Assembly (NCBI GenBank): GCA_900617105.1
Contig: UYFQ01000567.1
Span: forward strand, 1-32,549
DNA from: Hydrurus foetidus
Taxonomy: Eukaryota
Direction of reading: 5' to 3'
Length of the DNA stretch: 32,549 bases
The translations under genes and the position numbers were made by a program. Below the pieces are notes generated by a model, which had not been told where the DNA came from, ran no database searches, and saw only the letters and a list, made by a program, of their open reading frames with translations. Below, piece after piece: positions 1 through 32,549 of the stretch. Each line of letters opens with the position of its first letter. The stretch's first letter is position 1.

Positions 1-2855
1 TGGCCGAAAAATTCGGGCATAATTTTAACTAAATTTAGATTTTTTATGGTATTTATACCTATAATTAAATCTATTTCAGAGTCTTCGGCAATGCGGACTG
101 GAAGAGAAAAGATGTATTTTAAAGAATCTTTTTAAATGATACAACAATATCAAGCACAGATTTGGATTCAATACACTTATTATCTAAACCAGAACAAATC
201 CACATAGGTGAATCGGAGTCGCGTAAGCGGTGTTCGCCCGTAGGCCCTCGAGGACTCTACGGTTAATGACGTCACCGACTTCGCACCCCGTATCGATCTG
301 GGCCAGTGCATCCATGCCTCTACTTTGAGGAGTAGGGCTTGTTGGAGCTGCTGGAGGATCCTTCCTTTTCTTTCGCCTTGTCGCGCGCGAAGGCCTCTCG
401 CTCGTTGCGTTGGCGGTCGCGGTCGCGGTTGTCGTTGTCTGCTTGTGCGCGGTCGTCTTTGCGAGGGCGCTCGTCTTGTCTTGGGCCATACTGATCTGTG
501 GGAGAGATATGTTGACTTGTAAGTAATCGTTTACTTTTTCAGGTAGTATTGCTGAAAGTAATGTTCGTGTTCGAGGTAAGTCGATACGCGGTAAAATTGC
601 GACACTGACAGGTGGTATTGAAAACTCACTTCTTCGTCTGTCGTCGTACGCCGGCTTTTTAACCTTGCTGTATGGTGGTGCACTGGTACCTTGCCGAGGG
701 TTTGACTTTTGTTGGGTGTTACCCATGTCAATGTCCTCTTCTTCCGTGGGGAATTCGAAGTTAGTCGGGACGTGGATTTGTTTTCGCTCCCGGGATACTC
801 CGCCCGATGGAAGATGTGCATCGATTACAAAATGTTTGTGACCGAGCCGTTTCCATTCGAGCCCCATAAGGGATTCGGACCACATTTTGTGCGAGTTGTT
901 GCAATGCTCGTTCATGTGGAATCGGCAATTGTAACGGTTGTGCCCGTTGCGCCCACAGGTGTGGCACAGCTTGGTGTTGCGGTCAAGGCCGGGGTAATGA
1001 TGTACCTCTGGCTGACGCTTTGCGATCGCCTTGTATGGTGGTGCGCGTGTGTCCTCCTCTGGATGGAATCCACTGCGTGCAGGTTGGAGGAGTATGATGC
1101 ATTAGACAACGAGCTTCGTTGTCTTTTTGCTTCCTCGGAAGTTGGGCTGTCTGGAGTGGTCCAGCGGTATCTGCTGTTCCCCAACTCCGCTGCGTCGTTG
1201 ACGCATTGACGTGCGATGTTGAGGTGGTCGCTGAGTCGCATGTACATGTCTTGGATGGTGTCTCTTTTTGTCTTCTTTATGGCTGTCTTTGTGGCCTCTA
1301 AGAATTTCATCCCGAGTGCGTTTTCTGCTGGAAGCTTTTTGTAAAATGCTTTGCAGATTTCGTTCTCGCGCTCGGGTGTGAGGTCGGTTCTATCTGGGTA
1401 GTACAGGCTGATGATCTCCTCAAACCGAGTGATCGATGCCTCTTCGACATATGCGTCAGCAAAGTCGTAAGCAAACTTGTAAGCTCTGATCTTCTCATTA
1501 CAATCGTAGGTCGTGTTGGACGTCCTAGTTGCTTGTGAGAAGCAGGCTGTCAAGTCCTTTGCGATTTGTCGGATCGATAGGGTGACCCCGCGGATGACTG
1601 GCCAAGTGGAACATTCTGGTTGGGTGTACCCAAGGACTGCCTTCATTCCATTGAGTCTGAACCTTATAGGTACCAGGGCATTCTCGGTAATGATCTGCTT
1701 CCAATGTGTTTTGAAATTGGGCAGGTTGGCTTGATCGTGGAATGCCTGGATGGTAGCGGACCATCTGTCAAGAGTTTCTCGGCGTTGAGCATGAATACCT
1801 CATTCATATTTATGAGTGTACGCTGTTGTTGGTAATTCTCGTCTGATAAGACTGAGGTATCACTCTGCTCATCGTCGATATCTTCCTCCACCTTGCGTCT
1901 GCGTGCAGCCTCTGTTGTTTTAATTTCAACGCGGCGCTTGTCGCCGCAGACGTCTTCGGTTTTGGCCTCTGAGTGGGATGGTCTTTTTAGACACATCTTC
2001 CTTAGACTCTTTTGCTGATGCAGTTTTTGACTGCTCTGCCTTTTTTGTCTTTTGTGGAACGATGATCTTTTTTCTTGTGGAAATCTTTTTTGTTTGCTTT
2101 GGCGGAGACTTAGTCTTGCGCTTCTCAGGAGAGATGGATTCAACTGACTCGTCTGACGATCGATCGTCCTCATCCGACACTGACTCCGCAACTATCACGT
2201 TATCGTCGTCGTTGTCGTTGATTTCTTCGTCGTTTTCGATGTCGCCCTCATCCTCCTCGTCCTCTCCCGACTCTAAGTCCACCTCCATCGAGGTTTGAAC
2301 CCTGGTCGTTCGAGATGATTTTCTGACGGGGATGGGCTCACTCTCGATTGACTTAGCATCATCAAGGATATCTTGTTCGTTTGCTTTCTTGTCTTTCTCG
2401 TTGCCTCCTCTTCTTCGTTTTGGTCTGCCTTTTGGGCTTCCCTCTACGTCGATGGTTTTTGCAACTGAGGTGCTAGAGCACGGACGAGATCGAGCGCAGA
2501 TCTCGCGTTCTCGTCTCTCGTCTTCGTTCGTTGCCTCTAGGACATATGCAATCATGGCCACTTCGTCTTCAGTCGTTGCGTCTGATGTCTTTTGAGCATC
2601 TTGTATACGCTTGCGTTCTGAAGACCGTTCGGAGTTGCGGGCGGCAATCTCGTCGGGAATGCGTGTGGCGGTGGCTGAGGCCTTTATGGCTTGTCTGGCC
2701 ATGAGAGATTTGCTTCGAGCAATGTTTTCTGCTCTCATCTTCTCCTCGGCCTTTCGTGCCTTGCGAATGCTAAGCATTGTCGCGCTTGGTAGGCCGAGGG
2801 AAGTAGTAATTGCTCCTGGGGAGGCTGATTTGTCGAGGATATCTTGAGCTTCCAT
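1..2855 (-). pseudogene. gag-protease of Gypsy A, split by several frameshifts (ORF pieces 1926-3020, 1664-2191, 912-1646, 184-915 and 1-~240)
   Basis: Consecutive overlapping ORF pieces: charged disordered N-terminus (MEAQ start at 2855), helical capsid-like segment, zinc knuckle, DTG protease. Frameshifts near 1970, 1730, 1650, 1085 and 238. Confidence 0.75.
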
Positions 2856-3416
2856 TGTCTTCGTCTTCGCTACGATAATGGTCGGTAGTTTATTGAAGGG
2901 ACCGCGACGGAACTCGGACGCGGTGAATTCAGGGAGAGGAAGGATAGGTTGAACTTTTGTGAAGACTGGTAGGTGTAGAGTGGAGTAGTAGAAAAAGGAG
3001 GATTGGAATGGTTTGGTCAATTTCGGGAGGAAATTGACGAGAATTTCGGGAGGAAATTTCTCGGCGAGGCCTGCGGAGCGAGCAATCCCACGAACGGAGC
3101 GTTGCTAATGGGTCCTTAAGTAGCGCTTTCGATGCTGAAAGCTACTACTGGCGTGTCGGCTTTCGTGTGACGAAAGTTTTCGATGGGATTTCTTGATATC
3201 GCGAGAAATCGCTGAGATCGAGCTTCGTTAGGACGAAGAGATAGAGGCTGTCGCTTTGCGAATCAACTCTCTATATAGTCGAATAGACGTTTCTGTTACA
3301 GAAAGCTATTGACACTCTCTTTTCGCTTCGAAAATGAGTCGGGTAGCGGTGTGGGAAATCTTGATTTGGCAATCGGCTTTCGTCTTGAAAGGCTAGCTGA
3401 TTCCAAGTAAGCTTAC

Positions 3417-3640
3417 TGTGGTCTCACTGAGGCCTTGGCTGGAACGGGAAACCGGACGGCGGAGGGCAAAGGTGAAATGGCTGGGGAACGATGCTAAAAG
3501 ATAGCAATGTGATTAGCTTACAGATAAGCACAGCAGATATCACGCAACAAATCGTATGGATCGGATCGTCCTCGATCCGAACCGTGCGTACGTTTGTACC
3601 CGAACCCGGTATACCCGGTATACTCGGTGTACGGGTCACA
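3417..3640 (-). repeat. 5' LTR of Gypsy A (~224 bp, TGTGACC...GAGACCACA)
   Basis: TG...CA termini; shares CTGTAAG, TTTCCCGTTCCA and AGACCACA motifs with the LTR of B. The second LTR is outside the window. Confidence 0.75.
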
Positions 3641-4760
3641 GTGCTTGATGGTAACCTTGAGTGAGATCAAGTACAGCAAACACTTTTGCTTGATGTGCAC
3701 CTATTCTACGCAACATCTCACCGATGTGTGGAATAGGATGGTTTATTTTCGGTACAATTGTTGAGATTCCGAAAATCAATACACATGCGCTTAGTTCCAT
3801 CAGATTTAGGAACTAGTAAAACTTGGCTATAATAAGCCGCGTTTGATTTTTTAACAATGTTATGTTTTTCAAGTTTGTTAATCTGACTAAGAATGTCAGC
3901 TTGATCAACTGTTGATTTAGCCCATGGAGGTTGTCTATTTTTAGTGACTTTCCATTGGTCGTCATTGACATTAAAGTCAAAGGGTGGAATATCAGCAGGA
4001 GTGGCCGAAAGTTCACTGCTAAATACATCCTTGAATTCGTGTACTAGTAACCGAAGTTTATTTTTCTGATCTTCATTACCTGCTAAGTTTATTAGCGAGA
4101 GTAGGTCAGTATCAGGAAATTCATCTATCCAAGGTGAAAACGAGTCCTTGATCGAGTCGTCGATTTCGTCCTCATCAGGGGGCACAGCCTCAAAAAGTCT
4201 TTCAGACTCTTGTATTAGTGAAGCTAGAATAACATGTGTTTGGGTTACTGCCGGTTTCACCTTTTGGGTTAAAGGATCGACCTTTGGGGAGCCATCAGAG
4301 GGTTGCAACTTCTCCTTAGGCTGACAGCCACACGTTATATCCACTTGCTCAGAAGATAAAACTTCCGCTAATGAGGATGTGCTTGATGAAGCATTGGCAG
4401 ATATCTGATCGGGGAAACGTGAAAATAAATTCAATTCGCGAATTGTTTTTCGTCCCACTATTAGATCAAATTTCGAATCGTTTAAAACATAAGCCGTGAT
4501 TTGAAAAGTATAATAATTATTTAAATCAAGGCAAAAATAAGAAAGAGTTAAGTCTATAGTGTCAGAAATATCATAACAATGATTATCTAATCCACTACAA
4601 ACTTTACACAATTTCTTTGAAGAGTTAGAAACGAATTGTGTGAAATTATGATTAGTTATAATGCGGCGATGTATAAAGTTGCCAGCAAAAGAGCCGGTGT
4701 CCAGGAGAGTAAAGACTCTATTACTTTTTTCCAGCATAACCTCCTGTGAGAGGGAGATAC
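3641..4760 (-). CDS. pol: Pol of Gypsy B: aspartic protease plus N-terminal RT (truncated by insertion, frameshift near 3745)
   Basis: LLDTGSFAGNFI, VCSGLD, DLIVGR, RMCIDFRNLN and DLTQGYHQ motifs. Confidence 0.9.
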
Positions 4761-6233
4761 GAAGAAAGGAATAAGTTCTGGATCATCGGAAAGAATAGAT
4801 GATGAATTTAGGTTGCATAGTTGCTCACCTTTGTGTTTCTTCGCAGCGTTTGTCGAGTCTGCTGTTGAAGTAGCAGGTTTTGACGAAGAGGAAGACGAAG
4901 AGGAAGACGATGAAGAAGAGGTCGATGTCTTAGGTAAAGTTGGAATAAACTTAGCCTTTGAATCGACTTTCAACAACTGCTTATGACCCTCAGAGTTGAT
5001 ATAGGGTGCGTCTGTACTGTTATAGTACGGTGACGTAGTGTAGAAACACGTGGCGACGAAATGACCAAGTCTCCCACAACCTGTGCAGAGAGGTCTTTCG
5101 AATTTGTCAGACTTGTCTGACTGCACTGATTGTTCGCTCTCTCGTGGACGTTTTTTGATTTTGTCCTGAGAGGAACGAGCAGGAGCTTTGATTTGGCGAG
5201 AGTTATCACCATACAAAGGAGAGACATCAATGAACCGTAAGGCATCAATTGATTCTCGTAGCTTAGCAAGCTGCGCAAGCCATACGAATCGAAAGTCTTC
5301 GATTGTAATGAGTCTTGGCGTTGTATTGTTAAGACTTCGCTGTAACACTGCTCTCCAATTGATAGGTTCGACTTGCAACTTATCGATGAGAATTTTAGTA
5401 GCCTGAAGTTGGAGAGTGGGTGTTGCATCAGGGAATCCATCAACAATATCAGCTAAAAGCTGATCTGTCTTGTCTTCCACTGATTCATCCTTCAGGTCGA
5501 ATTGAAGTGCGACCTGAGAGACAGTTTCAATGAAACTCAGCTTGTCAGTTCGATTGACAGCTGATGTAGGAACTGTGAGATTTAGTTCTCTACAGAACAA
5601 TTGATTCGACCAATGTTTCCAATTGTTACAGGAGTCGCGACGATCGGGATCAGTTGCAAACTTACGCTTGAGAAGCGTTGTAAACGATTGATGGTTGGAA
5701 ACATGGACTACATCAACTGGTTTAAATGGAGTTCCATTTGAAAGGAGGACTTCCATTACCCGTAGTACTTCCTGACGAGAGGGCACGGCGCTCAACTTAG
5801 GAGCTCTCTCACCCGTCTGTACATATTGCTGGGGTGGTGACATCGTCCTTGGAATAGGATTCTCAGCAATAGCTGGTGTCGCGTTTGAATCTGGTATCGC
5901 AGCCGAAGCTGGTATCGCAGCCGAAGCTGGTATCGCAGCCGAAGCTGGTGTCGCAGCCGAAGCTGGTTGCAATGACAAAGCAGATAACGCCGAAATGACA
6001 GGAATATCAATGACAGACATGACCGCAGGCTCCGAATTCCGCTGAAGAATCGGTGCAGACAGGTCGCCGGCGGGGTCCTGAGCCGCAGGTGGCCCAGGAG
6101 ACTCTGCGTCTCCACTACGATTGTGATGGTCGTCATAACGTTGTCGGAACGCGACGGCTACAGCACGAGGTTGCTGCTTTCGCCGAAGGGCGTTGATGGA
6201 GGATGTCTTTTTGTCTTGGCGGCGTAGAGCCAT
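4656..6233 (-). CDS. gag: Gag of Gypsy B (predicted spliced form ends at TAA 4723-4721)
   Basis: 525-aa ORF, low-complexity N-terminus, CCHC knuckle, Ser-rich tail, directly upstream of pol. Confidence 0.8.
   Translation of the reverse strand: MALRRQDKKTSSINALRRKQQPRAVAVAFRQRYDDHHNRSGDAESPGPPAAQDPAGDLSAPILQRNSEPAVMSVIDIPVISALSALSLQPASAATPASAAIPASAAIPASAAIPDSNATPAIAENPIPRTMSPPQQYVQTGERAPKLSAVPSRQEVLRVMEVLLSNGTPFKPVDVVHVSNHQSFTTLLKRKFATDPDRRDSCNNWKHWSNQLFCRELNLTVPTSAVNRTDKLSFIETVSQVALQFDLKDESVEDKTDQLLADIVDGFPDATPTLQLQATKILIDKLQVEPINWRAVLQRSLNNTTPRLITIEDFRFVWLAQLAKLRESIDALRFIDVSPLYGDNSRQIKAPARSSQDKIKKRPRESEQSVQSDKSDKFERPLCTGCGRLGHFVATCFYTTSPYYNSTDAPYINSEGHKQLLKVDSKAKFIPTLPKTSTSSSSSSSSSSSSSKPATSTADSTNAAKKHKGEQLCNLNSSSILSDDPELIPFFVSPSHRRLCWKKVIESLLSWTPALLLATLYIAAL
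5891..5967. repeat. 18-bp minisatellite (~4 copies, ctggtatcgcagccgaag) in gag B, encoding PASAAT/PASAAI repeats
   Basis: Directly visible tandem array. Confidence 0.95.
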
Positions 6234-6337
6234 AATTTTGACGTGATGGTTTAAGTTGGAGGAGTCGAAGACAAAAAGTTGGAAAAGAGAAAGACCTTTC
6301 TCGGAGGAAGCTTCGGTAATTGACCGAATATCGATAT

Positions 6338-6598
6338 TGTGGTCTGACGGCGGGGCCTAGGACGGAAGGCGAAGTTGGAACGGGAAAAGGACGGAAGGCG
6401 TGGACAAGCGGACGTGGAGTCAAGGTGATAAAGACTTGTGTTAATATCTTACAGTTAAATAGATGAAGGTGATGTGTACGCTAAGAGCACTCACGTCATA
6501 TATGGAACTAAGACCTAAACTGGAATCTGGGCGTCATATACCTATTGTACCTAGTAAACCTAGACACATTGTATCCATAGGGATGCAATAAGGCTACA
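6338..6598 (-). repeat. 5' LTR of Gypsy B (~261 bp, TGTAGCC...CAGACCACA)
   Basis: TG...CA termini; begins where the MULE-like reading frame loses coherence; 3' half similar to LTR A. Confidence 0.75.
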
Positions 6599-7029
6599 CC
6601 AGTAAGTCCACGATGGGCTTCTGGGGTGAGAACCGTAAGATCGGTATGATCGTGAACTCCATGGAAATACGAGATGTATTGTCCAATGGAGGAATCCATC
6701 TCGTATCTTCGCATAAAAGAGCAGCCAGTAAATTTGCATTTAAACTTAAACTGCAAGTCTACTGAGCTGACTTTTGAATAGTCCGATATTGCTGCATCAT
6801 GCACTACATCACCAAGAGACTGGTAAAGTATAAACCCAGTCTTATCCTCCACTAAATGTTCCTCCCATTTGAGAGCTTTCCCACGACCTTTCTTCTTTAC
6901 AGAGTTAGAAGGATCATTAATAACCTCCTCTGTAGAGATGTCAACATCAGATCCTGAATCAGTTGATGCTGGACTGTCTGGAATATGAATCCCAAAAGAT
7001 GTTTCGACGCCGAATACAGTGTTGGACAT
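6599..7029 (-). pseudogene. 5' fragment of a probable MULE/Mutator-type transposase (WRKY/FLYWCH-like zinc finger), interrupted by Gypsy B
   Basis: FKCKFTGC...HGVHDH (C-x4-C...H-x-H) followed by HRGLT; the C-terminal ~30 aa of the listed ORF are LTR B sequence. Confidence 0.55.
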
Positions 7030-7596
7030 AGTGAGGGTTGAAGGAATGAGGGTTGCAACGAAGTAATCTTTTCTAAGGAAATTTGAATAGATTACTCAGA
7101 TTCTGAAGATAACTTCCCAAGAAAAATTTGAGAACTACTGGAGATTTGAAGTGACTTACCGAGTATTGTTGCACAGTTGCAAGATTCTGGTGCTGCTTGA
7201 AGTAGATATACAGATTTTTTCACAAAAAAAGTCAACTTAAAATCAGTTTTTTTGGCAGAAAATTTCTACTGAATTTTTTTGGCGCGATTTCAGTTGTAAA
7301 AAATAATCCGATTCACTAGAATCTGTTATTCCGTCAATATATTCCGGGGTGCGTGCTCCAGATTAAAAAAGTCAAAGCACAATGGGTCCGTTTGGTAAAT
7401 TCGACGAAAAAAACGGCGTTTTTTCGAAATCACGATTAGGACTTCGGATCGAGATCTGAAAAATCGTGTTTTTTTCGATTTTCGAAAAACCCGTTTTACC
7501 AAACGGCCCTTTTTTTTGATGACCACCAGTTGCGAAAACTGAAATCCCACCTTTAACCTCATACGTGTTCATGCACAACACATAATAGAGTAAACG

Positions 7597-8766
7597 ATGT
7601 TCAATCCTGATGATGGTCTATTAAACCTTGAATTGCTGGTTGCTGTTGTTTTGGCAGCTGAGAATATTGACGGTGTGCATCCAGTCATCCAACACGACTC
7701 CGAGCTCACTGGTGCGAAGTACTTTAGTGAGCTCATGCGCACCGAAAATGTGAACCGATTTCATCAAGTTGCCAGAATGGATAAAGATACATTTAGTCTT
7801 CTACTTAATTTACTCATAGATGTTGGCGGATTGGTTAATTCGATGTACATAAGTGTGGGAGAGAAAGTCATGATATTAATTTATGTGCTAAGGGGGCATA
7901 CAAATCGTGAGACATGCGAGCGATGGCAACACAGCGGAGAAACAATATCGAAAATAGTTCATGAAGTAAGCGACGCCTTACTGGGATGTGGTTATGTTAT
8001 ATACAAACCAGCACAAGTTGGTGATCCAACACCGTCGCATATTTCCAATAGTGCTAAGTTTTCACCATATTTCAACGATTGTATTGGTGCTTTAGATGGG
8101 TCTCATATTCCTGCAATAATCCCCTTGGAGGATCAAGGCAGATACTTTAATCGGAAAAAATTTTTATCGCAGAATGTACTAGGTGTTGCAAATTTTGACT
8201 TATCGTTTGCATACGCTTTATATGGATGGGAAGGAACAGCTCATGATAGCAGAGTATTGGATGATGCCAAAAACAAAGGTCTACCACTTATACCTGGAAA
8301 GTACTACCTGGGTGATGCGGGGTACGGACTTAGTACCACCGTACTTACCCCCTATAGGGGTGTACGTTACCATTTACAGGAATTTGAAATCAACGGAAAT
8401 GGACCTGTCAACAGTAAGGAATTATTCAACTTAAGACATTCCTCATTACGCAATGTTGTAGAACGTATCTTCGGAATAGTAAAAGCTAGGTTTCCAGTAC
8501 TAAAAAAAATGAGCCCGTATGAGTTCGAATTTCAATGCGATATTGTGCAATGCTGTTTTTTACTGCATAATTTTGTTCACCTCAATCAAACATATGAAGA
8601 TCAATTCTATGATGAAGCTGGTAATTTTGTTGATAATGATATCGATGAAGACGTAGTTTATGAACCAGTAGAGGACGGTGTATACAATGCATTGAAGATA
8701 TGGCGCAATGGTATCGCGGAGGAGATGTGGGCTGATTATCTCGCATATATGGCACTAAATACCTAG
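7597..8766 (+). CDS. Harbinger transposase (DDE_Tnp_4, HARBI1-like)
   Basis: Motifs CIGALDGSHIP, GWEGTAHDSRV, YYLGDAGY and FNLRHSSLRNVVERIFG; intact 389-aa ORF. Confidence 0.95.
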   Translation: MFNPDDGLLNLELLVAVVLAAENIDGVHPVIQHDSELTGAKYFSELMRTENVNRFHQVARMDKDTFSLLLNLLIDVGGLVNSMYISVGEKVMILIYVLRGHTNRETCERWQHSGETISKIVHEVSDALLGCGYVIYKPAQVGDPTPSHISNSAKFSPYFNDCIGALDGSHIPAIIPLEDQGRYFNRKKFLSQNVLGVANFDLSFAYALYGWEGTAHDSRVLDDAKNKGLPLIPGKYYLGDAGYGLSTTVLTPYRGVRYHLQEFEINGNGPVNSKELFNLRHSSLRNVVERIFGIVKARFPVLKKMSPYEFEFQCDIVQCCFLLHNFVHLNQTYEDQFYDEAGNFVDNDIDEDVVYEPVEDGVYNALKIWRNGIAEEMWADYLAYMALNT

Positions 8767-9060
8767 GGAAAGGAACAATAAAATCTTTTTTTTTCGATAT
8801 ATCGAATTTAACATTAATCCTATTGATTTTTTGAGGTCATATCCTGACAGTTTTTTCGATTTATCTCATCAACCAGTGCTCTGATCGGGATTCTGAGCGT
8901 ATTTCCTGATCATAGTTAATTCTATTCATTATTCCAGTGGGGGGCTAAACTGATACCGGGGCAAAACTGATACCGCTCTGTACTATACTCCGCACAATCA
9001 ACTGACATACCAACCCTCACAACAACCAATTAGGACATCGCCGGCGTCGATCAGAACACC

Positions 9061-9549
9061 ATGGATGCAACAGTGCCAGTAGACGAAGATGCCTACAACC
9101 ACTGGATTGAATTTTCGGGCGGTTTGCCAACGCTTCAGCAGAAAAAATGGATAACAAGTAGAGTCTTGAACAAAATCGAGAGCGCGGCGGACATTGCAAA
9201 AAGATACAACATCCAAAGAAAGTATATCAATATCCTTGTTCAGAGGATGCGTAAAAGATCCTATCTCAGAATGCTGCCGGGCAGACCGCGAGTTCTTGAT
9301 GCTGAAAGCCAACAGAAAATTGAAACTTCCATCGTAGATATGACGTGCGAAAATGACGATCACCTTACCTCGGCAATCAAAGAGGAATTCCTTGCAACCC
9401 GCCTGAGATTGGGCAAAGTTGATGCAGCTGACGATAGTACTGACGTTGTTGATCCTGTTAAGATTTCGAGGAGATCACTAAAGCGCTATCTTATCCGCTT
9501 TCATCCTGGAGTATTTCAAACATTTGACGCGCACTCTGCTGTTGTCTGA
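9061..9549 (+). CDS. Stand-alone HTH protein homologous to the N-terminal DNA-binding region of the element's transposase
   Basis: QKKWI...IAKRYNIQRKYINILVQR...GRPRVLD...KISRRSLKRYL aligns by eye with EKVWL...LSGRYGISRKILNLWVNR...GRPKLFD...PISRRSIARYI. Confidence 0.8.
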   Translation: MDATVPVDEDAYNHWIEFSGGLPTLQQKKWITSRVLNKIESAADIAKRYNIQRKYINILVQRMRKRSYLRMLPGRPRVLDAESQQKIETSIVDMTCENDDHLTSAIKEEFLATRLRLGKVDAADDSTDVVDPVKISRRSLKRYLIRFHPGVFQTFDAHSAVV

Positions 9550-9606
9550 AGATGAAGCTCAAACTGTTCATATTGATTCTGAATTATCCGTTTATTTACA
9601 AATAGA

Positions 9607-11381
9607 TTAAATATCTTCTACTGCTACTACTCCTACATTTTTTGCTCTTTTGTTCGGCTTGGGGTTCTGCTTCTTTAACTCTGCATCTGCTTTGCGCTTG
9701 ACAGCTTTGGCAACCTTCTCTGTCTCGAGTGCTTCTTTCGCCAGCTTCTTGTCGTCCTCACTAGCGATAAATGCGCAGTTAGTTAGGAATACAAATCTTC
9801 GACGGTTGAGGACGAGATCATCAATGCATCTACCATTTGCCCTGGACATGTTGTCCATATCTAAGCGTTCCATGTCCTTCATAGACAACTCCCCATTGGT
9901 CTTCATCTGATTGCAAAGGAATGGCATGTGCTCCCAAACTCTCGTGATCTCATCAGTAGTGAAAGCAGTTTTGCACTGACCCAAAATTTTCTCAACATCG
10001 CATCCCCCGCCCTTTCTGTCGAACTGGCCGCACGTACTGAATGAGTCGGTAATTGTGTCTGATCTTAAAGTTGACTGAATTATATGTTTCACTACCTGCA
10101 GTCCCTCTGCTATTGCTTTCACATGCGCCGCAGACATTTTCTTCCCAACGAAAGTTTCATGCAGCTTGATGAAGTTTTTGTGACGCTCGGTAGATTTGGA
10201 AATCAGTATATCCTTGATATTCTTAAGTCCCTTTTTTTTGTTTTGGATGCCATAAAACATGTCCCAACATCGCACGGCTGGTAGATTGAGGTTGTAGAGG
10301 CAGGCAACTTCCCAATGACGATATTGTGTTCTAAGCACATGTTGGCAACCTCAGTGGTTCTCAGCGGCTTGATCTGAACATCCTCCCCATCAAGTGTAAA
10401 ATAAGCTGGTGTCGTCAGAGGTATTTGATTTAGTATCCTTATGTCAGTGACAAACTTGATGAAGACACTTGAGAACCACCATCTATAGAACTCCTGGTTG
10501 ACGCTTCGAGTTTTAGAAAATACTACCCAACCAGTCGACAGTATATCAGTCCCGATTCCCAGACCGGATACCTCATGGTAGTCTATTGTCCCCTCCACCA
10601 TGTTGTCGTCAGCAATTATGTAAACAGGAGGAGCAGAGACACCCATAGCAGTGATACACATATAGAACTTGATGAAAAATGCTGTCAAGGTAGACCCTTT
10701 CACTGCCATGACTTTCAACGGTCCTTTCTTCTCAACCCTCTCTAGTGGGTCATAGAGAACCTGAACCTTGTCTGTTAGGCCACCCGAAGTTTGATATGAA
10801 GTCCCATCGGCATTGATCGCTAGATCAGGAACCGTCAAAGGCATCATCAAGAAGTGCGCCACAGCGACGGTAACAGCATTGAGCTTATCCGAAGTAGCGA
10901 GAGCTCTTGCGTCGGTGGTCTGCTCCGCATTACCGACTTTGAGACCGATGGCATCAATGTAACGTGCTATGGACCTCCGTGAGATAGGCTTGACCGATGA
11001 TCCAGCAACAGCTTTTGTTTTGACGACTGCTTTCACGTGCTCTGACTGTAAATTGCGAACGAAATCTGATTTTACTGTGTTGTGAATATTGCCCGAAACA
11101 GACGATCTCAGTTCTGCTTTCGCGGGAGAATCAAATAATTTTGGTCTGCCAGCATCGTGCACCTTTCCATTCTTTGAGAATCTGTTAACCCAAAGATTCA
11201 ATATTTTCCTGGAAATGCCATAGCGTCCAGAGAGTTCTGGTGAAGATACTCCATGATAGAAGATCTCATGAATAAGCCAAACTTTCTCAGCTGTCGAGAT
11301 TGAATTCGATTTTAATTTTGGTGTCCGTCTCCCCCAAGGACTAGGGAGCCTCTCGGGAGTCGATGGCGGAGAAGTTGACAT
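9607..11381 (-). CDS. pogo-like (DDE_1-type) transposase, ~591 aa, one frameshift at the A8 run near 10232-10239
   Basis: N-terminal HTH plus GRPK; catalytic motifs INADGT, TLDGE and LPASTTSIYQPCDVG (39 residues between the 2nd and 3rd Asp); ORFs 10203-11381 and 9607-10338 overlap. Confidence 0.85.
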
Positions 11382-11605
11382 TTCACCGCGATGTCCTAAT
11401 TGGTTGTTGTGAGGGTTGGTATGTCAGTTGATTGTGCGGAGTATAGTACAGAGCGGTATCAGTTTTGCCCCGGTATCAGTTTAGCCCCCCACTGGTATTC
11501 CCGACTTAGACGAATTGACTCCGTGTGGAAGAAAAAAAACCAGATTCGGTCCAAGGTTTTTTTTAAAAATTACGACCCCTCAAAATTTTATCCGGGCCTC
11601 CGTAC

Positions 11606-12585
11606 TTATTTGCCCTCTAGGGCATCTAACTTACTCTTTATGAACAGAGTTTGCTGCGCATCAGTGAATGATAAGAACTGATTGACATATGAGGAATTGT
11701 CTGCTAACAAGCCTATGAAGTCCATCTCTTTTTGCATGTCTAACAGTTCAGAGTGCTTATCTTTTAAAATACTAACAGCCTTATCGAATGGAGATAGCCT
11801 ATTCTGGTAAGTATCCTGATTTGACACTATCTTTGAGAGCAATTCATGAACTAAACTGACAGGCTTGGATTTTACCACTCTTACAAACGGTCGCACTGTC
11901 TTCAGCTCTTTTGCAACTCTGTCGACATTGCTTACTTGGGTTACTTCCACCTCACTGATGTCATCTTCATCCACCGGCACCCTTTTCCTGTGGCTTGATG
12001 CTGAATCAAGCGAAGGCGCTTCCAAATCCACCACGGCTGGAGAAAGGAAATCCACAGAGACGCTTGGAGCAGATTGACGAGGGGTCATAGGAGCCCTAGC
12101 AAATCGACCAGTTGCTGAATCCGCTGTGTATTAGGGAAGTACAAATATTAGCATATAAAACGAGTATTAATGTGTATTTAAGATTACTTACGTCCAAATA
12201 ATGCCGTTAATTCGTTAAAAAACATCAATGGTCCATCGGCAAACTCAGCAGCTTTTGGATGGCTAGCATAATACTCGTTTAATGCTTCTGGGGCACCAGT
12301 GACCATACCACTTGCATCCATCCCAAAACCACTTTGGTTTGCATACTTTGTGAACTCAAGGTATTTCTTCTTCAAAGAAAAACATTGAGTTTTAAGCATC
12401 TCTTTGTTATACTCTAAACCTGTCCTGATTTTGAACTCGTCAGCTATGATCTGCCAAGCAGTCTTGTCGTTAGACAAGTTTGCAAATCTGCCGGCAGAAT
12501 GCTTCGTCAGTAGGTCGATCAGAACTTTGCGGTTCATGTTCGACCACTTCGCCACGTCCTTTTTCTTGAAGGACGTCGACATCAT
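11606..12585 (-). CDS. Harbinger Myb/SANT-like DNA-binding protein; exons 12585-12192 and 12123-11606
   Basis: Trp-spaced Myb/SANT-like region (KWSNMNRKVLIDLL...AWQIIADEF...LKKKY); GTAAGT...CTAAT...CAG intron 12191-12124 joins the two ORFs in frame (LFGP-DSATGRFA). Confidence 0.9.
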
Positions 12586-12842
12586 TATGCTATATTGTGT
12601 AGTATGTAGTGCATAAACGATGGTTGCTACGACAGTTACCTCGATATTTTTGAACCAGGATGATCGGGTCCCAGACGATTCGAGGGGAAAGCTCTTTCTC
12701 GTGGAATCGCGATTTCTCGAAAAAAAATCGGTTTCAGAAATTTACCAAACACCGGATTTGAAAAAATTGAGAAATTTCAAAAAAACGGGGGGAAATCTCG
12801 TGGGATCGCGATTTTTCGGTTTACCAAACGCACCCAATAGCT

Positions 12843-15992: not shown

Positions 15993-17566
15993 ATGACACC
16001 CGAAGATATCCTATTGAATCAGGTGAGAAGCAATAAAGAGCAAGGAACTCAGGCATCTGCAAAGGACTTTTGAATTATCCATCACCACAGAGATTTCACC
16101 AGGAAAGCGAGATTCGCGGCTTCAGCATGAGCTCTCCAGCCTCCCCATACGCCGGTAGGACCACCGCAACTGCAATAATTGTCATTAAATTACTCTAATT
16201 CTGTTCTGTCGATGTTTGCATCTGACAAAGCACCGAATTCTCCGATCGCGTCATCGAAGAGACCTCGAGCCCCAGTCACTGTCGGTACGTCGAATGTTAC
16301 TGGCGAAATCGCGAGATCATTCACAAAATCTGACGTATTAAATCGAACAGTTGATGAAAGTTTGACATTTTGCTACTTCTAAACATCCTTTTACAGATTT
16401 GAGATCTCCCGGGAAGCCTCAGTCGCAACCGAGGTTCTACTGTCTTCAATCAATCTCAGATCCATCGCTCAATTATCTGTGTCAGCTCTGCATCCTCCAT
16501 CCTCTGATATCATATACCCACCAATGAAGGGAAATCGTTGGGACAACAGCTGCCTCAAGACGGATAAGTGGAAGCACAGATGAGACTCGCGTCGCTGGTG
16601 TACTGTTTTCTCCAGCCCTTAAAGACGATGCCGACGATAGTTTTGAAGGAGCCCACGCCGATGGAGCAGATGAAGAAGTTGATAATGAAGATGATGAAGA
16701 TGACGTGTTCAATCCATATCTATTTATAGCTGGTTTGCCCCCTCATTCAAGCGTCGTTATCAAGGACAAGATATGTCTTCCGCCTCTACCAAAGAATGGA
16801 ACACACCGCACTACCCTAGCCCTTGACCTAGACGAAACGCTGGTCCATTGCACTGTCGAACCGATTACCAAACCAGACCTTACCTTTGTGGTGACATTCA
16901 ACGGTACCATGTATCAAGTTTATGTGAGGAAGCGACCATATCTCGACTACTTTCTCGACTTAGTTTCCAAAAGCTTCGAGGTGAGTTTCTTAATCGTATC
17001 CCTGTAGATTTGCAAAGAATTCTTTCTTGACCTAACGCCTATAACTACCGACGCTGATTGGTCTTCACAACACATTACGTTCCGTTCTATTGACTAGGTC
17101 GTCATATTCACAGCATCTCAAAAAGTTTATGCCGATGTTCTTCTGGATCTCCTAGACCCCGAGAAAAAGCTCATAGGACACAGACTGTTCCGTGACAGCT
17201 GTCTGTTCGTTCAGGGTAACTATTTGAAGGATCTCACTGTTCTGGGGCGCGACATGAAAAAGGTAAATCGTCTATCACGCGACTGTTTCTACTACCCACC
17301 CTAACGATAATACTGTACTGTCGCAGTCGATACTCGTGGACAACTCCCCACACGCTTACGGCTATGATTTAGACAACGGGGTCCCTATTGAGTCTTGGTT
17401 TGATGATCCCTCAGATACCGAACTCTTGAAGTTAGCGGGGTTTTTACAAGGCGTAACAGATGTAGACGATGTCAGGCCGATTATTAAGAACCATTTCAAA
17501 TCCTATGAATTAGTGCATAACGCCACCCTCGGGTTCGCCACAGTCACCACTGCACCACCATTCTAA
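15993..17566 (+). CDS. SCP/CTD small phosphatase-like HAD phosphatase (NIF domain, CTDSPL2-like); exons 15993-16022, 16091-16154, 16231-16284, 16397-16433, 16530-16980, 17098-17262, 17327-17566
   Basis: DLDETLVH (DxDxT/V), YVRKRP, IFTAS, RLFRDSC, YLKDL and VDNSP motifs; all six GT-AG introns phase-consistent. The first exon is less certain (alternative ATG at 16127). Confidence 0.9.
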
Positions 17567-19112: not shown

Positions 19113-19526
<414 letters not shown>

Positions 19527-19598
19527 CACCCTCATGCTACAACACATTTGTTCGCAGTTTGATAATCAAGCATTTGTTGTCTACTAATACTTAATATT

Positions 19599-22500
19599 CT
19601 AAGCTAAGTCTTTGTCGGGCCACCCAGTGACTCCGTGTCTCTCCAATCTGAATTGTCCCCCCTGAAGCGGCTTCGTCAACATGTTAGCGTACATGTCCTT
19701 CGTCCCGAGGTGCACCACCCTTGCCTCTCCCATGTCCACCCACTCCTTCAGCCAAAAGTATCTGATGGAAATATGTCTTGTGCGCTCCGCCGCTGACCGC
19801 CCGCGGTCTATGAGAGCCATGCATGACATGTTGTCTTGATAGATCGTAACCGGCGCGCACGCGTGTCCTTGCCCTATGATGAAATTTCTCACGTGTAAAG
19901 CTTGGTTAGATGAGTCGGACAGTGCGACCAGCTCTGCCTCCGTGCTTGACTTCGTCACGATCTGCTGCTTCACGGACTTGCAATGTACTGCACCCCTTTC
20001 TCCCACCACAACGCAGCTCCCAGTGTGTGATCTCCCATCGGGATGTACCCCGAACGCAGCATCGATCAGGACACTCACGGCTATTCCCTTCGCTCCCGGT
20101 GCGAGCACTATGCCTCGGTCTCTGGTCGCCCATACATATCTCATCAGACGGTCCAACTTGGTCAGGTCGTCCGTGGTGCACTTGGTCACTCTGGTGGCGA
20201 GGAAAGCTACTGCTGTCAGGCAGTCCGGTCTCGTTCTCTTCGCTAAGTATAGCATCTTCGCTACTCGGCGATGGAAGATCACTCTCTCTTCCTCGCTCGC
20301 GTTTTCGATGTCCGGCCTCACATCGAATAGTCCCTCGGTCGCGGGAGTCTGCGCACCCTTGGCTGTCCCCGCCTCCTTCAGCATATCGTCCACGTAACCT
20401 GTCATTGAAACTTTGGCTACACCCTGCGAGGTTAAGTCAAACACCATCCCAAGGTAGTTCACTACAGGTCCGTCTTTCCTTGTTATATCTCCATACCTAA
20501 TGACCAGTCCCTCTGCAAGTGCTTCGATCATGTCTGCATCGGTGCTCGTGATCATCAAGTCGTCCACGTGGACAGCTATGGTGCATTGCACCCCGAGTGG
20601 GTTCCTTTTGTTGAACACGCATATGTCGATCGCATTGGGAGTGTACCCTAGACCGTGTAGACTCGCCTTCAGGTTCTCGTACCAGAGCGCCGCGGATTCC
20701 ACGCATCCGTATAGTGCCTTGTCTAGTCTCACTACGACGCACCCTCTGTCATTCATGTACCTCGAGTAGTGTGGTGCAAGCTTTGTCATCATCCCTGTCA
20801 TGTTCTTGTCTAAACGCATATGCACGGCAAGCCCGGCGTTCATGTCCGCGTTGAGGTATGCACCGCTGATGTCTATGACCGTCACCCTACGACCCTCGTG
20901 TGCCGCGATGCATAACAGAGTGAATACTGAGCTGGTCCCCACTGTCGGAGCGGACAAGTCATCGTAGAGTGTCTTGTCTTGTTGGTCTCCGCCCGCGACG
21001 AGCCTCGCCTTGAGTTTCTCGAATTCACCGCTGGCTAGGAATTTCTCTTTGAGGAACATGCTCGATCGGATGATGCGCGCCTTCTCCTCTCTCGGGAGTC
21101 TCTGTTTGTCCACTGGCGTCCATACTTTCTTTTTGATCATTTGCCCGAGCTCTTTGAGTATCACGCTCTCGGCTTCTTTCCCTCTCGTGCGCAGTGCCTC
21201 ATTCACTGAGATGTTCAACACGTATTCCTTCCAGTCGCCACCTACGGAGTTATAGTTACGAGTGAGTAGCGCAGCTCCATGTTTGTCGCCTCTAAACATG
21301 TCCATCAGTTTCTGTCTGGGCAACACTAGATGTCCTACGCTGGAGTATCTCTCTGCCGCCTCGGTTGCCTCCTCCATAATTCCGAGGTCTATCGCTCCGT
21401 TCTCTCCGTAGTCCTCAGGCACTCCCTGTTCATCACCGTATTCCACTCGCACTGCATCTGGACTCCCTACTTCAAGTTGTCTGAAGCTGCTCAGCAGATC
21501 GTCCATGTCAACCACCCTAGGCTCTATCCTTACTCTTGGTGTCGGTATCATATCGTCCGCGTAGTTCGACTCCTCACTGTAAGGTTCCTCCTCGTGCGCA
21601 TCGAGCGCGATATTCATCTCTTGGTCTGCTTCAACGTATATGAGCTCTTGCTCGTGACTCTCATCCATGAGCGACACCGCTGGATCTACCCCGTTGTTAA
21701 CCTCAGTCTGAATTGTCTCAGGTAGACCGTTTCTCATCTCACCGTCTTGCTCGAACCTAACAATGCGTTTCTCTAACTCACCCTTTCCTTTGACCCTACC
21801 ATCTGCTAGTTCAAGCTCATTTAGTTTCTTGTAACGGACTCTGGCATGGGCATAATAATGAATTGGTCCCTGTTCACTACCTTCCCGGTCGCTAAAGACA
21901 GCATTCGTACGGTCCCCGTACAGTTCCCTAATGGCAATATTACTACGCAGTCCTCGGTTCGCAGTTTTAGAGTCGCGTCGGTGTTCGGCACTGTACATTG
22001 AACATAGTCGCCGAATGAATAGCGGAATTCTCTTTTGCCGTCTGGTTTCCTCCCTATGAAGGCCTCCCTCGGGCTAGGGCCCCATTCCCGTTCTCCGTAC
22101 GGTTCGTAGTTCACCCTAGAAACTACGTACATTACGCACATAGCAATACCCACACTCGATAATGTGAAAGGCAGAATGTATACATGTGAACGTAACCTTT
22201 CTTTGATAACTCGAATCCTTCGTTCGATTCTAGCGACGTGGCCGCCCGCTCCACTGACATCGACATCTACTCCGAGCTTCCCTAGTTCGTCGACCAGAGT
22301 GATCACAGCTCCCTCTCCATCGCTCATGATCACCGAGGTCTTAAATCCTTGGGATCCTAGCACTCCTAGAAAATGGGCTATTCCTTTCCTCACGTGCTCT
22401 GCTGACCTGGTCGACTTCTTGAGCACTAGGTTGTTTAGACTATATGCTATAGTTAGTCCTAGAGGAGTCGCTAGGCCGATTAGAATAGCAATTTTGTCAA

Positions 22501-24421
22501 TAAACATAATGTCGATTGCCAGCACCTGATCCTTTTGGACTATTTTCGCTTTCACCGATATGTCGGCCGTAGGAGTAGCATGTTTCGTGGTCTTCCCTTT
22601 GATGGAGGCAATGTCCTTCCTCCAAATGGCTTCTGCGATCTCAAAATCTCTCGCCGAGATATCAAAGTTGCTCCCGGAGTTCACGATCGACATCGCTGTC
22701 CCGACGGTCGGGAATCCCATTCTGCCCATTAGCTCGCGCGCCGATCTCGCACGGTTGATTTCCCTCTTTGTCAATGCTTTCAGGTTCTGATTCACTGTGG
22801 TTACCATAGCTGTCTCTGCCTCGACGGTCCTCCAATCACAGGAGTAGAACCTCCCGCCGCTACCAGGTATAGTTTTACGACCGAACTTATACACGTTGCT
22901 GCTCCCCCTTGGTTGTAACGTGAAGACGTCTTCCTCGTGGTCATATCGAATGATTGCTCCTGCATCCACTTGTGTCGCAAAGGATAGGACGTTGGCTGAT
23001 GATTCTCCGCTGTAGAATACTGTTCCAAACTCTCCGAAATCTCCTTCGTTGTCGACTGTAACTCCCCCTCCAGCTTGAATGCCGCTGACTTTGATCGACT
23101 GCTCTGACTTGCGTATCCTAGAGAGCTGATTCTTGTTGCTGAAAATGTTTAATGAGGCTTCGTTGTCGAGAAGTACATCGTACTGTGTGAACATGCACCT
23201 TTCATTCAATGCAACAAGTGCAATCCCCCACTCGCCTTCTCCACTCTCATCGTCACTGTCAGGTTCAGCCTTCGATACGTGGACTTTCTCTCCTTTCGAC
23301 TTTCTGTTGGGACAGTTTCTCGCGTAGTGACCTTTTTCTTCGCAGGTGTAACACTCCACTTCGGTTAGTGGCTTCTTTCTGGTACCTCCGGTTTTCCCGG
23401 CTGCCTTCTCGGTGTCTTTCGACAAGGTGATGTGGACTTCTTCGGTAACGAGTGCGACCCCGGGTGTGTGAGGCGGGTCCTTGGGTGCTCCCCCATCTAT
23501 TCCCTGATAGCGTGAGGCTATGCTGTATGCCCTTGCGAGTGCGCTGGGGTAGGCGTCGGCCTTGTGTCTAGCGGCGTCGTTGTTCATGTCTTGAGTCATT
23601 TTACGGTATCGCTTAGGGTCAAGCTTCCCGAGGAAGTCTAGTGCACGTCGTGAGTCTGTGACTTTGTCGGCTCCGACTGCATCATTAGCTAGCACCTGTT
23701 CGTCGAATCGTGCTTTAAATGTATGTATGAGCTCTCTCTCACCTTGTCTCATCGCACCGTACTTACTCTCTTGTTCGTGCCTGTTCACTTCTTTCATCGG
23801 GTCTGAGTCACCATACATGTGGGTGAGGTGAGTTTTCCGAATGAGTGTCCACAGTAGTACACAGTTCAGTGTCATGTACGCTGTTCTGTACTCCTCCTCT
23901 TCTTTCACTCTGTTCTGTGAGCTCGGCGACATTCTCTTCCACATCATCGGGTAGACGGTACGTTCGCTCTCCTTCTGAGTTTTGAGGTCTCTTTGCCTCT
24001 GGATGTAATCCTCTTCTCGATATTTCGCTCGTGAGCGTTCTGCGGCATTTCGTCGCCTTTCGTTTCGAACCTCCCTCGCGGCGGCTCTTGCTGGTTTACC
24101 CGCGGTGTGCGCTAGGAGTGCCGCTGTCTCAGCAGCTGTAGGTGCAACTACGTGCTCTTGTTCTTCGTCTTCGTCAGCTGGAGCATCTGGCTCCGATTCT
24201 GACATCGAGTCTTCTGACGACGAGGCGTCTGGGTAGTGAAGGATTGTCCTTGGTAGTTCGTATCTCACATCTGTTGTGAAGAACATACCGACTATGCCGC
24301 ATAGTTCTGTGACTATAGTCTGCATACTCTCTCTCCACTTTATAGTGTTGTTGAATTTGCCATATTGAAGGATGCACTCCTCAGTGCTTTTCGAAGCTTC
24401 AACGGCGCGTTTGGGAGGCAT
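19599..24421 (-). CDS. Copia gag-pol polyprotein with one frameshift near 21830
   Basis: CYTCEEKGHYARNC; LLDNEAS; integrase DIMF/SDGEG/IERRIR; RT KARLVAGG, LDKALYG, VHVDDL; RNase H IDAAFG, STEAEL, YQDN, ANMLTKPL. Confidence 0.93.
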
Positions 24422-24446
24422 GACAATGCCAACGCCTGTCAAATTA

Positions 24447-24671
24447 TGTTGGAGAACCTCTTCGTTCCGAGCACCCTAGATCGGAACGTGGACCTGTGGT
24501 CTGGAGGTTCGATTACCAAGGCTTGTGAAATGAGACGCTTGTTGCCAATAATCACTCGTTAGTTTGACTGTGCTGAATCCCTGTCTACAGCCCCGAGTCC
24601 CTTTCAACGCAACAACAAATCAAACCTACACTACACTTGAAGTACGGTGTTCTGCTCAGGCCCATACATCT

Positions 24672-24712
<41 letters not shown>

Positions 24713-24784
24713 TAATCCGTACGTCCGTACGAATGCATAAGTACACATAATGTGTTCGTGTCATGAACTCAGATATATCCAATA
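24447..24784 (-). repeat. Copia 5' LTR (338 bp) containing (CA)18
   Basis: Matches the other LTR except for microsatellite length and about 2 substitutions, one in the terminal dinucleotide. Confidence 0.95.
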
Positions 24785-24786
24785 TA

Positions 24787-25148
24787 CGGGCTGGTAGCGC
24801 CAAGAAGCAGGAATTTTTTTCGTTTTGACACTTCTTTTTTTCTGTCGAACGGTTTCTCATTTGTGATTGCTCAAAAGAACCGAAATCATCTCTGCTACAC
24901 CCCCACGCTTTTCGCTTGTTTTCAAAATTCGTATTTCGTGAACTTTTACCCTTTTTACCCAAAATAGCATGACTTTTGAGCACTATGGTGCACAATAACA
25001 ATTTACCAGCGTATTTAAATGCCAAGCAAATTACACGGCCTTGTATGAACGATTTTTCGACATCTTTCCATCCGTTTAGTTTTTCCTGGAGTGTTCCAGA
25101 AAAAAACATGAAATAAGGAATTTTACGTTTCTTGGCGCTACCAGCCTG
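24787..25148. mobile_element. Tc1/mariner-type MITE (362 bp, TA flanks)
   Basis: TA-CGGGCTGGTAGCGCCAAGAA ... TTCTTGGCGCTACCAGCCTG-TA inverted termini; AT-rich non-coding interior. Confidence 0.85.
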
Positions 25149-27784: not shown

Positions 27785-27992
27785 TGTGGCTCCCTCAGGG
27801 TCTGCTACCCCATTCAGCCGATTAGATGCTGTTTCCACCTTAGTACCTTCGTGTTCACAGCCACGACTATCAGTCACTAGCTAGTTTGTGCTGCTTTGCA
27901 GAAGTTACTAGCGTACCTTCTGCCTTCATCCCTAACTAACTAGCTCCTTTTAGCCTTTAGATTTCCCTTCTCTTTTGCCTTCCAAGGTCACA
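27785..27992 (+). repeat. 5' LTR of Gypsy C (~208 bp, TGTGGC...GGTCACA)
   Basis: Imperfect inverted TG...CA termini at the point where the Copia sequence stops; followed by a boundary palindrome as in A and B. Confidence 0.72.
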
Positions 27993-28434: not shown

Positions 28435-28734
28435 AATTTTTGTGCAGAGTTAACTCCGTTAACTTCTGCCCATCTCTCGCCGCAAGCTTTGCTTGGCTGA
28501 CGTCCGTGGATAGCTTTGTCTTCCACGCCGTTCTCGTTATTGGTCGAGCAAGTCTCCCAATCCCGACTTATTTTGTACGGATTGATTCACTCATCCGTCC
28601 AGAACCTGCTTGACTTATTGTGCTTCGCCTAATCGCCTGTTTGATTTTCATCCAAACGGCACGAGGCGAAGCCCTTGCAAAATTTTTTTGGCGACCCCGC
28701 TATTTAAAATTGTCAAGACATAAGTCATCTAACG

Positions 28735-32054: not shown

Positions 32055-32549
32055 ATGTCGGCAATACCGCTCATAGGTACGTTACCGTCTGACTCACTTG
32101 TAGCAGCGGTACACTCAACACATCCTAATGAACTTCTTTCATTATTGGTGTTCAAGGATGAACGAAGAACCTTGCAGGGACACGCCCCCACCACAGTCGC
32201 GTCAGCACCCAGGTCCACGGGACTTAGTCTTACAGCGCACGCGCTCCTAGACACGGGTAGCATGGCCGGCGATTTTGTTTCCAAATCACTGCTTGTCTCA
32301 CTTGATGCACTTGCTCATTGTTATGTGTCTTCAACAGCACTTAACGTTTGTAGCGGTCTTGATGGAACTTGTTATAGGTGTAATACCTTAGTCGATTTAG
32401 GCCTTACTTTTTTCGATGATAGTAATATTAAGCACACTATCTATATCACTTTTAGTGTTAATCCTTTTGCACAATTGGATCTGATCATCGGACGCAAGTC
32501 CCTGAATCAACACAACTTGTTTGTGCTGACGCCGAAACGTATGGGCTTA
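32055..32549 (+). CDS. pol: Aspartic protease region of Gypsy C pol (open to window end; absent from the ORF track)
   Basis: Manual translation: MSAIPLIGTLP...AHALLDTGSMAGDFVSK...VCSGLDGTC...LDLIIGRKSLNQHNLF. Confidence 0.88.
   Translation, partial: MSAIPLIGTLPSDSLVAAVHSTHPNELLSLLVFKDERRTLQGHAPTTVASAPRSTGLSLTAHALLDTGSMAGDFVSKSLLVSLDALAHCYVSSTALNVCSGLDGTCYRCNTLVDLGLTFFDDSNIKHTIYITFSVNPFAQLDLIIGRKSLNQHNLFVLTPKRMGL

Follow-up and report, generated by a model that had tools for sequence, protein, structure and literature searches.

How does a retrotransposon that reads from gag into protease in one frame make Gag on its own? The question is raised by element A, a Ty3/Gypsy element at the left end of contig UYFQ01000567.1 of the Hydrurus foetidus assembly, the whole of which (32,549 nucleotides) is called the window here. 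An earlier sequence-only reading had proposed that an intron at the gag-protease junction of A is removed to give Gag and retained to give Gag-Pol. Our analysis argues for this switch, places it in a clade extending far beyond the window, and assigns to the intron a coding role that the first reading did not foresee.

The gag-protease junction of element A

The relevant features of element A, read from the window unless noted, are the following.

1..3640, minus strand: part of element A within the window; the 5' end is the TG at 3640, and gag is broken over several frames
925..966, minus strand: Gag zinc knuckle CX2CX4HX4C
624..629, minus strand: predicted 5' splice site GAA/GTGAGT, phase 1 in the gag-pol frame
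496..629, minus strand: predicted optional intron, 134 nt (3n+2)
505..528, minus strand: DYLQVNIS, predicted first protease strand within the intron (from family rows and the model of a relative)
496..507, minus strand: CAG acceptor with its pyrimidine tract; in the pol frame this CAG is the Gln codon of ISLPQ
320..495, minus strand: dual-coded segment; pol frame, Thr/Ala-rich protease loop; -1 frame, charged 58-residue predicted Gag tail
320..322, minus strand: TAG stop of the spliced frame, lying 19 nt before the AQIDTG motif
286..294, minus strand: DTG active-site triad of the aspartic protease

The minus strand reads GTGAGT at 629-624, preceded by ...AGAA, and TCTCTCCCACAG at 507-496. The 400 nt leading up to the protease motif contain 13 GTs, of which this donor is the most U1-like. 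The predicted intron is open in the pol frame and has stops in both other frames; its GC content is 0.40, compared with 0.52 before and 0.58 after. The splice sites first proposed (629/496, phase 1, 134 nt, 3n+2) are borne out by the sequence, and so is the unspliced frame, 1101-184, which is open from the CHTC knuckle via the Thr/Ala-rich linker into IDTG. The spliced tail has the 58 residues and the stop (TAG, 322-320) claimed for it, but reads DKAKEKEG and not DKAKKKEG. The dual coding of the linker was likewise recognised correctly, whereas the intron is more than a spacer: towards its 3' end it encodes DYLQVNIS, the predicted first protease strand, which is invariant or near-invariant across seven rows of the A family. 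The odd Thr/Ala make-up of the linker follows from Asp/Asn/Arg codons being read one base off. When the pol frame of A was recoded with synonymous codons, the shifted frame was open to a stop in the final 33 nt before the motif in only 0.25% of 4000 trials. The strict YTRAY branch motif is absent from the intron, which offers only a loose match, CTTAC, inside the DYLQVNIS-coding stretch and 28 nt ahead of the acceptor. Use of another acceptor, at 491, is not favoured; the intron would then be 3n+1 and the tail would run for 103 residues through the protease region.

The window copy of A is damaged. Its gag is split over the frames 3104-1926, 2191-1664, 1799-912 and 1101-184, with frame changes near 1917, 1757 and 1040 upstream of the junction, and its protease reaches the window end through two further changes, near 236 and 128. 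Contigs of three sequencing runs holding element A show one-base differences at 128, 236, 1757 and 1917; therefore, the breaks are not family-wide. Being broken, the window copy itself may be able to make neither Gag nor Gag-Pol protein. The only terminal evidence within the window is the TG 5' end, the 3' end lying beyond it. That start at 3640 lies within another Gypsy-like element, B, whose RT it cuts directly after ...DLTQGYHQA, so that A is nested in B. In runs X6 and X7, summed depth rises about fivefold across 3640. The gag of A has an acidic low-complexity N-terminal region without a Pfam match, and a Pfam scan gave no match on its four frames, nor on the frames of B and of a third Gypsy-like element, C. 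A separate joint near 370-406 takes out about 35 nt within the dual-coded segment.

The same layout in elements B and C

The two other Gypsy-like elements of the window, B and C, have the same junction layout by eye.

4744..4828, minus strand: homologous intron of element B, AAG/GTGAGC ... CTCTCACAG, 85 nt (predicted, later matched by a joint)
4721..4723, minus strand: TAA closing the spliced tail of element B, GGYAGKK
32077..32177, plus strand: predicted homologous intron of element C, TAG/GTACGT ... TTGCAG, 101 nt
32225..32227, plus strand: TAG closing the spliced frame of element C, 16 nt before the protease motif

The acceptor of C is weaker than those of A and B. In runs X6 and X7 the intron of B has one extra base in 43-63% of the depth, and B is the sole junction of our set that is neither 3n+2 nor in phase 1 because of a one-base loss in the window copy. 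The strict branch motif is absent from the introns of A, B and C and present in both predicted host introns of the window, which lie in a NIF-family phosphatase gene at 16981-17097 (GAG/GTGAGT, 117 nt) and 17263-17326 (AAG/GTAAAT, 64 nt). These host introns have the same signals and sizes as the junction introns, and the host is a eukaryote with GT-AG introns. The N-terminal gag region of C (28708-31146) is very long, Asp/Asn/Arg-rich and of low complexity, with no Pfam match.

The window also holds two Copia-like elements (19113-24787 and 25473-27825), the first with terminal direct repeats carrying a CA microsatellite whose length differs between the copies. A Harbinger-type transposase is found at 7594-8766 and a Myb/SANT gene at 12184-12741; between them lies an element with 111-nt inverted repeats and a weak DDE_1 match (8931-11498).

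Conservation of the junction

We assembled 22 junctions with DNA, namely the three window elements and 19 fetched loci, the latter selected from loci located by a protease-motif pattern (five in metagenome contigs and 11 in genome contigs) and from further ones in the bins of these contigs. L004 was dropped because its 90-nt key is the same as that of L001, L031 and L042 came without upstream DNA, and others were duplicates or short of the motif; a chance bacterial match, L016, was retained as a control beside the 22. Scans of viral contigs confirmed no junction, and a class-wide genome search added none (1/401). Among 19 of the junctions, identity between protease cores runs from 27 to 95% (median 39%), and two pairs exceed 90%. 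Several bacterial bins (L006-L015, L017-L049; G001-G006) carry contigs of these eukaryotic retrotransposons, with up to 13 matches per bin, which looks like bin contamination.

Scored without regard to phase, the best U1-like GT in 400 nt lies in phase 1 in 21 of the 22 junctions, compared with 58 of 232 control windows. It is the predicted donor alone in 18 junctions, tied in three and elsewhere in one (L024). The donor matrix over the 22 junctions has A in 20 at -2, A in 18 at +4 and G in 17 at +5, and the donor codon is always xGT while the residue varies between Gly, Ser and Cys; the place of the donors was judged by distance to the acceptor and not by multiple alignment. At the acceptor, the Gln codon is CAG in 22/22, against a background of 224 of 639 Gln codons (35%; log10 P -8.5), and YTRAY occurs 12-45 nt upstream in 18/22, compared with 30 of 127 other in-frame CAG codons. 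The predicted introns measure 77-134 nt and are 3n+2 in 21/22. A fixed rule, whose limits were set after seeing the data, was passed by 20 of the 22 junctions; of 232 control windows taken from the same ORFs and overlapping one another, 6 passed. Conservation of the GT/AG sites, set by the earlier reading as a test for the family of A, holds well beyond that family.

The layout also leaves a trace in proteins. A Gln within eight residues past the predicted strand was found in 65 of the 69 held-out proteins that reach across it (of 148 new ones) and in 113 of 751 control windows, while the donor-type tripeptide was enriched, though incomplete (17 of 44 held-out proteins vs 8 of 150 control windows). 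The clade is deeply split, the junction-protease profile matching 893 protein clusters at E up to 0.001.

These sites could in principle be unused by-products of protein conservation, the combined effect of a basic patch ending in Gly or Ser, a conserved Gln and a T-poor low-complexity linker. This would agree with the strong phase-1 GT of the bacterial L016, with the six control windows that passed the full rule, and with the lack of a junction for A in the runs, X3 (RNA on record) being without cover at the site. Nevertheless, codons are fixed where the protein is free (CAG in all junctions, xGT under three different residues), L016 fails the full rule, and an exact joint occurs in B, so that we regard this explanation as highly improbable. 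Across the set as a whole, the predicted gag-protease junction intron is neither a product of chance nor peculiar to the window copy of A.

Evidence of splicing

In runs X6 and X7, a joint at 4742/4828 with the ends CT..AC corresponds to the exact loss of the B intron (4828-4744) as predicted beforehand. It is one of 15 joints over positions 1-7000, and a match by chance would have a probability of about 1e-5. In each run a single contig carries the joint, with a short side of 26 letters, and X6 and X7 are possibly one sample. The joint amounts to about 0.13% of the summed depth of B. Both runs hold records of up to 79 kb and single contigs at depth 90-165; the kind of run is not on record, and by record size and depth they look like genomic DNA. 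If they are genomic, the joint represents reverse-transcribed spliced RNA, and if they are RNA, it is direct evidence of the splice. Another joint, 4620-4800, takes out the acceptor and DTG region of B, and its ends are not splice-like.

The corresponding joint of A, 495/630, was seen in none of the runs X3 and X5-X7. X3, the run with RNA on record, has no cover at 469-936, and the absence in X5-X7 says little because the depth of A is several times below that of B (a rough comparison, depth being no copy number). Splicing of A itself in RNA is a prediction. Runs X1-X4 contain just 5-10% of the sampled words; runs of small share are labelled glacier or freshwater metagenomes, which by itself is no evidence of habitat.

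The predicted Gag tail

The spliced frame closes close to the protease in every junction: the shifted-frame stop lies 4-28 nt before the motif, and all 22 stops fall in the last 33 nt, where 12.5 would be expected. The predicted tails range from 5 to 58 codons. For the short ones a stop is expected anyway (null 0.5-0.9 in 15/22). The long dual-coded tails (the A family, C, L005, L012 and L017) fall within one supported 12-row group (100/96) in a tree made from the protease cores of this junction group only.

Relative to pol, the tail lies in the -1 frame, and frameshifting is common in retroelements (PMC5009743), so that a -1 ribosomal frameshift might bring ribosomes into the same tail and stop. 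A canonical slippery heptamer is nevertheless present in only three of the 22 junctions and not in A, the invariant GT and CAG and the exact joint of B would be left unexplained, and a minor frameshift out of pol would yield excess Pol, the wrong direction. Of the explanations weighed here, we consider this one the least credible.

It is harder to set aside, although still unlikely, that the intron is spliced while the spliced RNA is not the main source of Gag. With kilobases of pol behind its stop, it could be a decay or silencing product, or it could encode a minor Gag with a tail of its own that limits copy number, excess Gag arising from turnover of Pol products. Indeed, splicing of the Arabidopsis element EVD is described as having to be coupled to early termination to escape RNA quality control (PMC5580714), and in fission yeast a cryptic intron of Tf2 feeds into silencing (PMC7175516). 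However, cryptic sites imposed by the host would not persist across elements only 27-68% identical, and the long tails stay open more often than under the recoding null (0.0025 for A, 0.003 for L012 and 0.037 for L006). These predicted tails are K/R-rich, and both features point to selection on the tail as a protein.

Element class and protein anatomy

A search with the junction frame of A retrieved six relatives among 2511 candidates, open from gag through protease (e.g. P0017), and one of the A-family relatives, P0022, is open on through RT, RNase H, integrase and chromodomain. A search with the pol frame of B gave 16 relatives among 2959 candidates, nine of which carry a chromodomain and span 1583-1840 aa in a single ORF. 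The order protease-RT-RNase H-integrase was found in four relatives, P0022 among them; the window copy of A ends inside the protease. The best PDB matches of P0022 are Ty3 Gag-Pol (E 1.7e-82) and Ty3 RT (E 3.2e-73), and PF00385 is above cut-off in P0022, P0002, P0010 and P0015, four of six proteins scanned, the other two ending earlier. By the sequences of these relatives, the clade of A is one of Ty3/Gypsy retrotransposons with a single ORF and a chromodomain.

An A-like relative, L012, was modelled from the donor onwards (mean pLDDT 74). In this model residues 19-26, within the intron, form a confident strand, followed by a low-confidence loop, which is the dual-coded part, and then by the protease core. 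The fold matches Ddi1 and retroviral proteases (retropepsin fold), with a 155-column alignment to Rous sarcoma virus protease. Together, the model and this alignment suggest that the strand coded by the intron is the first retropepsin strand.

Comparison with known systems

The closest parallel described is BARE1 of barley, a Ty1/Copia element with a single Gag-Pol ORF in which gag ends with an alternative intron of 104 nt (Chang et al. 2013, PMC3735527). According to the passages of that paper on splicing, the splice shifts the frame to a nearby stop and the intron has a lower GC content and is more U-rich than its flanks, as here. A short conserved GT-AG intron at the predicted gag end, of a length that is not a multiple of three and leading to an early stop, is also found in our junctions, as is the single ORF (relatives of 1583-1840 aa; A family open from gag through chromodomain). 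In contrast, BARE1 belongs to another superfamily, and its stop lies three residues past Gag, whereas the tails predicted here have 5-58 residues and overlap the protease loop; DNA copies of spliced BARE1 could not be amplified in the experiments described (PMC3735527), whereas intron-less B sequence is present in X6 and X7. The Ty1/Copia domain order of the BARE1 family was not found, integrase following RNase H in the relatives.

EVD and other Arabidopsis Ty1/Copia elements have shGAG introns (Oberlin et al. 2017, PMC5580714), which resemble ours in their conserved splice sites around the protease and in a stop that results from a splice-coupled frameshift. However, as described, these introns are longer, excise the whole protease (PMC12786077) and are tied to early polyadenylation (PMC5580714). 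Further Copia cases of spliced Gag appear in PMC7730604 and PMC9784723, and the part of a 2025 review that deals with spliced short Gag names EVD and BARE1 only (PMC12786077). Removal of the whole protease as in EVD is not seen here, where the introns end 30-192 nt before the active-site motif. The two Copia-like elements of the window show no GT donor right past the knuckle, the reverse of the plant pattern.

Among Gypsy elements, splicing of env is known and differs from the present case in place and outcome. For Arabidopsis Ty3/Gypsy, the survey in PMC5580714 reports no such conserved splicing. The plant Ty3/Gypsy elements Ogre and CRR are similar in that an intron is spliced from a subset of transcripts, yet in Ogre it lies between GAG-PROT and RT and its removal permits the full polyprotein, the opposite outcome, and in CRR it is rt that is spliced out (PMC6317226, PMC3735527). 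Tf1/Tf2 share the PR-RT-RH-IN order and the single ORF (PMC7175516), P0022 adding a C-terminal chromodomain, and Ty3, with the closest solved RT, instead uses a frameshift (PMC5009743); the sections on Tf1/Tf2 and Ty3 in these two papers describe no Gag-producing splice. The sole Gypsy Gag RNA presented in the relevant part of PMC7765848 is intron-less. The assumption of the sequence-only reading that Gypsy elements follow frameshifting or readthrough as a rule proved too narrow, as most plant LTR groups (PMC6317226) and Tf1/Tf2 (PMC7175516) are described as single-ORF. A literature search made mostly on titles and listings, with few subscription papers, found no paper on a Gag-only junction splice in Gypsy. 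The proposed mechanism is of the BARE1 kind, known until now mainly from Copia elements, and here it would operate in a Ty3/Gypsy chromovirus clade.

Proposed mechanism and implications

Our preferred reading, to which we give a probability of about 0.8, is that a conserved intron at the gag-protease junction is partly spliced to give Gag with a tail, that its retention gives Gag-Pol and the genome, and that it persists because it codes for protease. The intron would be removed from only part of A-type transcripts, and the resulting change of frame would end translation shortly ahead of the protease active site, leaving Gag alone with a short basic or charged tail. The unspliced RNA would be translated into Gag-Pol and would also serve as the genome. 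Intron-less copies would lack the predicted first protease strand and so be unable to make Pol; this would account for the retention of an intron in an element passing through RNA. A need for excess Gag over Pol is stated in PMC5580714, and from this need we infer that the splice sets the Gag:Pol ratio, the excess probably being supplied by the split between spliced and unspliced RNA. In the subclade of A, the exon after the intron would have grown to a 58-codon stretch read in two frames and tolerated as a protease loop.

A broader generalisation can be offered only tentatively, and we hold it to be doubtful: the protease-strand intron together with an overprinted Gag-tail exon might be the ancestral and general route to Gag excess of single-ORF chromoviruses, common to this aquatic clade and to fungal Gypsy elements, with a tail growing from 5 to about 60 residues as a new capsid C-terminus while Pol is left untouched.

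For annotation, the true Gag end of such elements would be missed by automatic procedures, and the Gln past the strand offers a cheap marker for the switch in protein databases. The junction also illustrates how an intron can survive in an element with an RNA stage in its replication: here it codes for a predicted part of the protease. Single-ORF Gypsy elements are common, and the clade described here gives an answer, at the level of sequence, to how such elements may obtain an excess of Gag over Pol.
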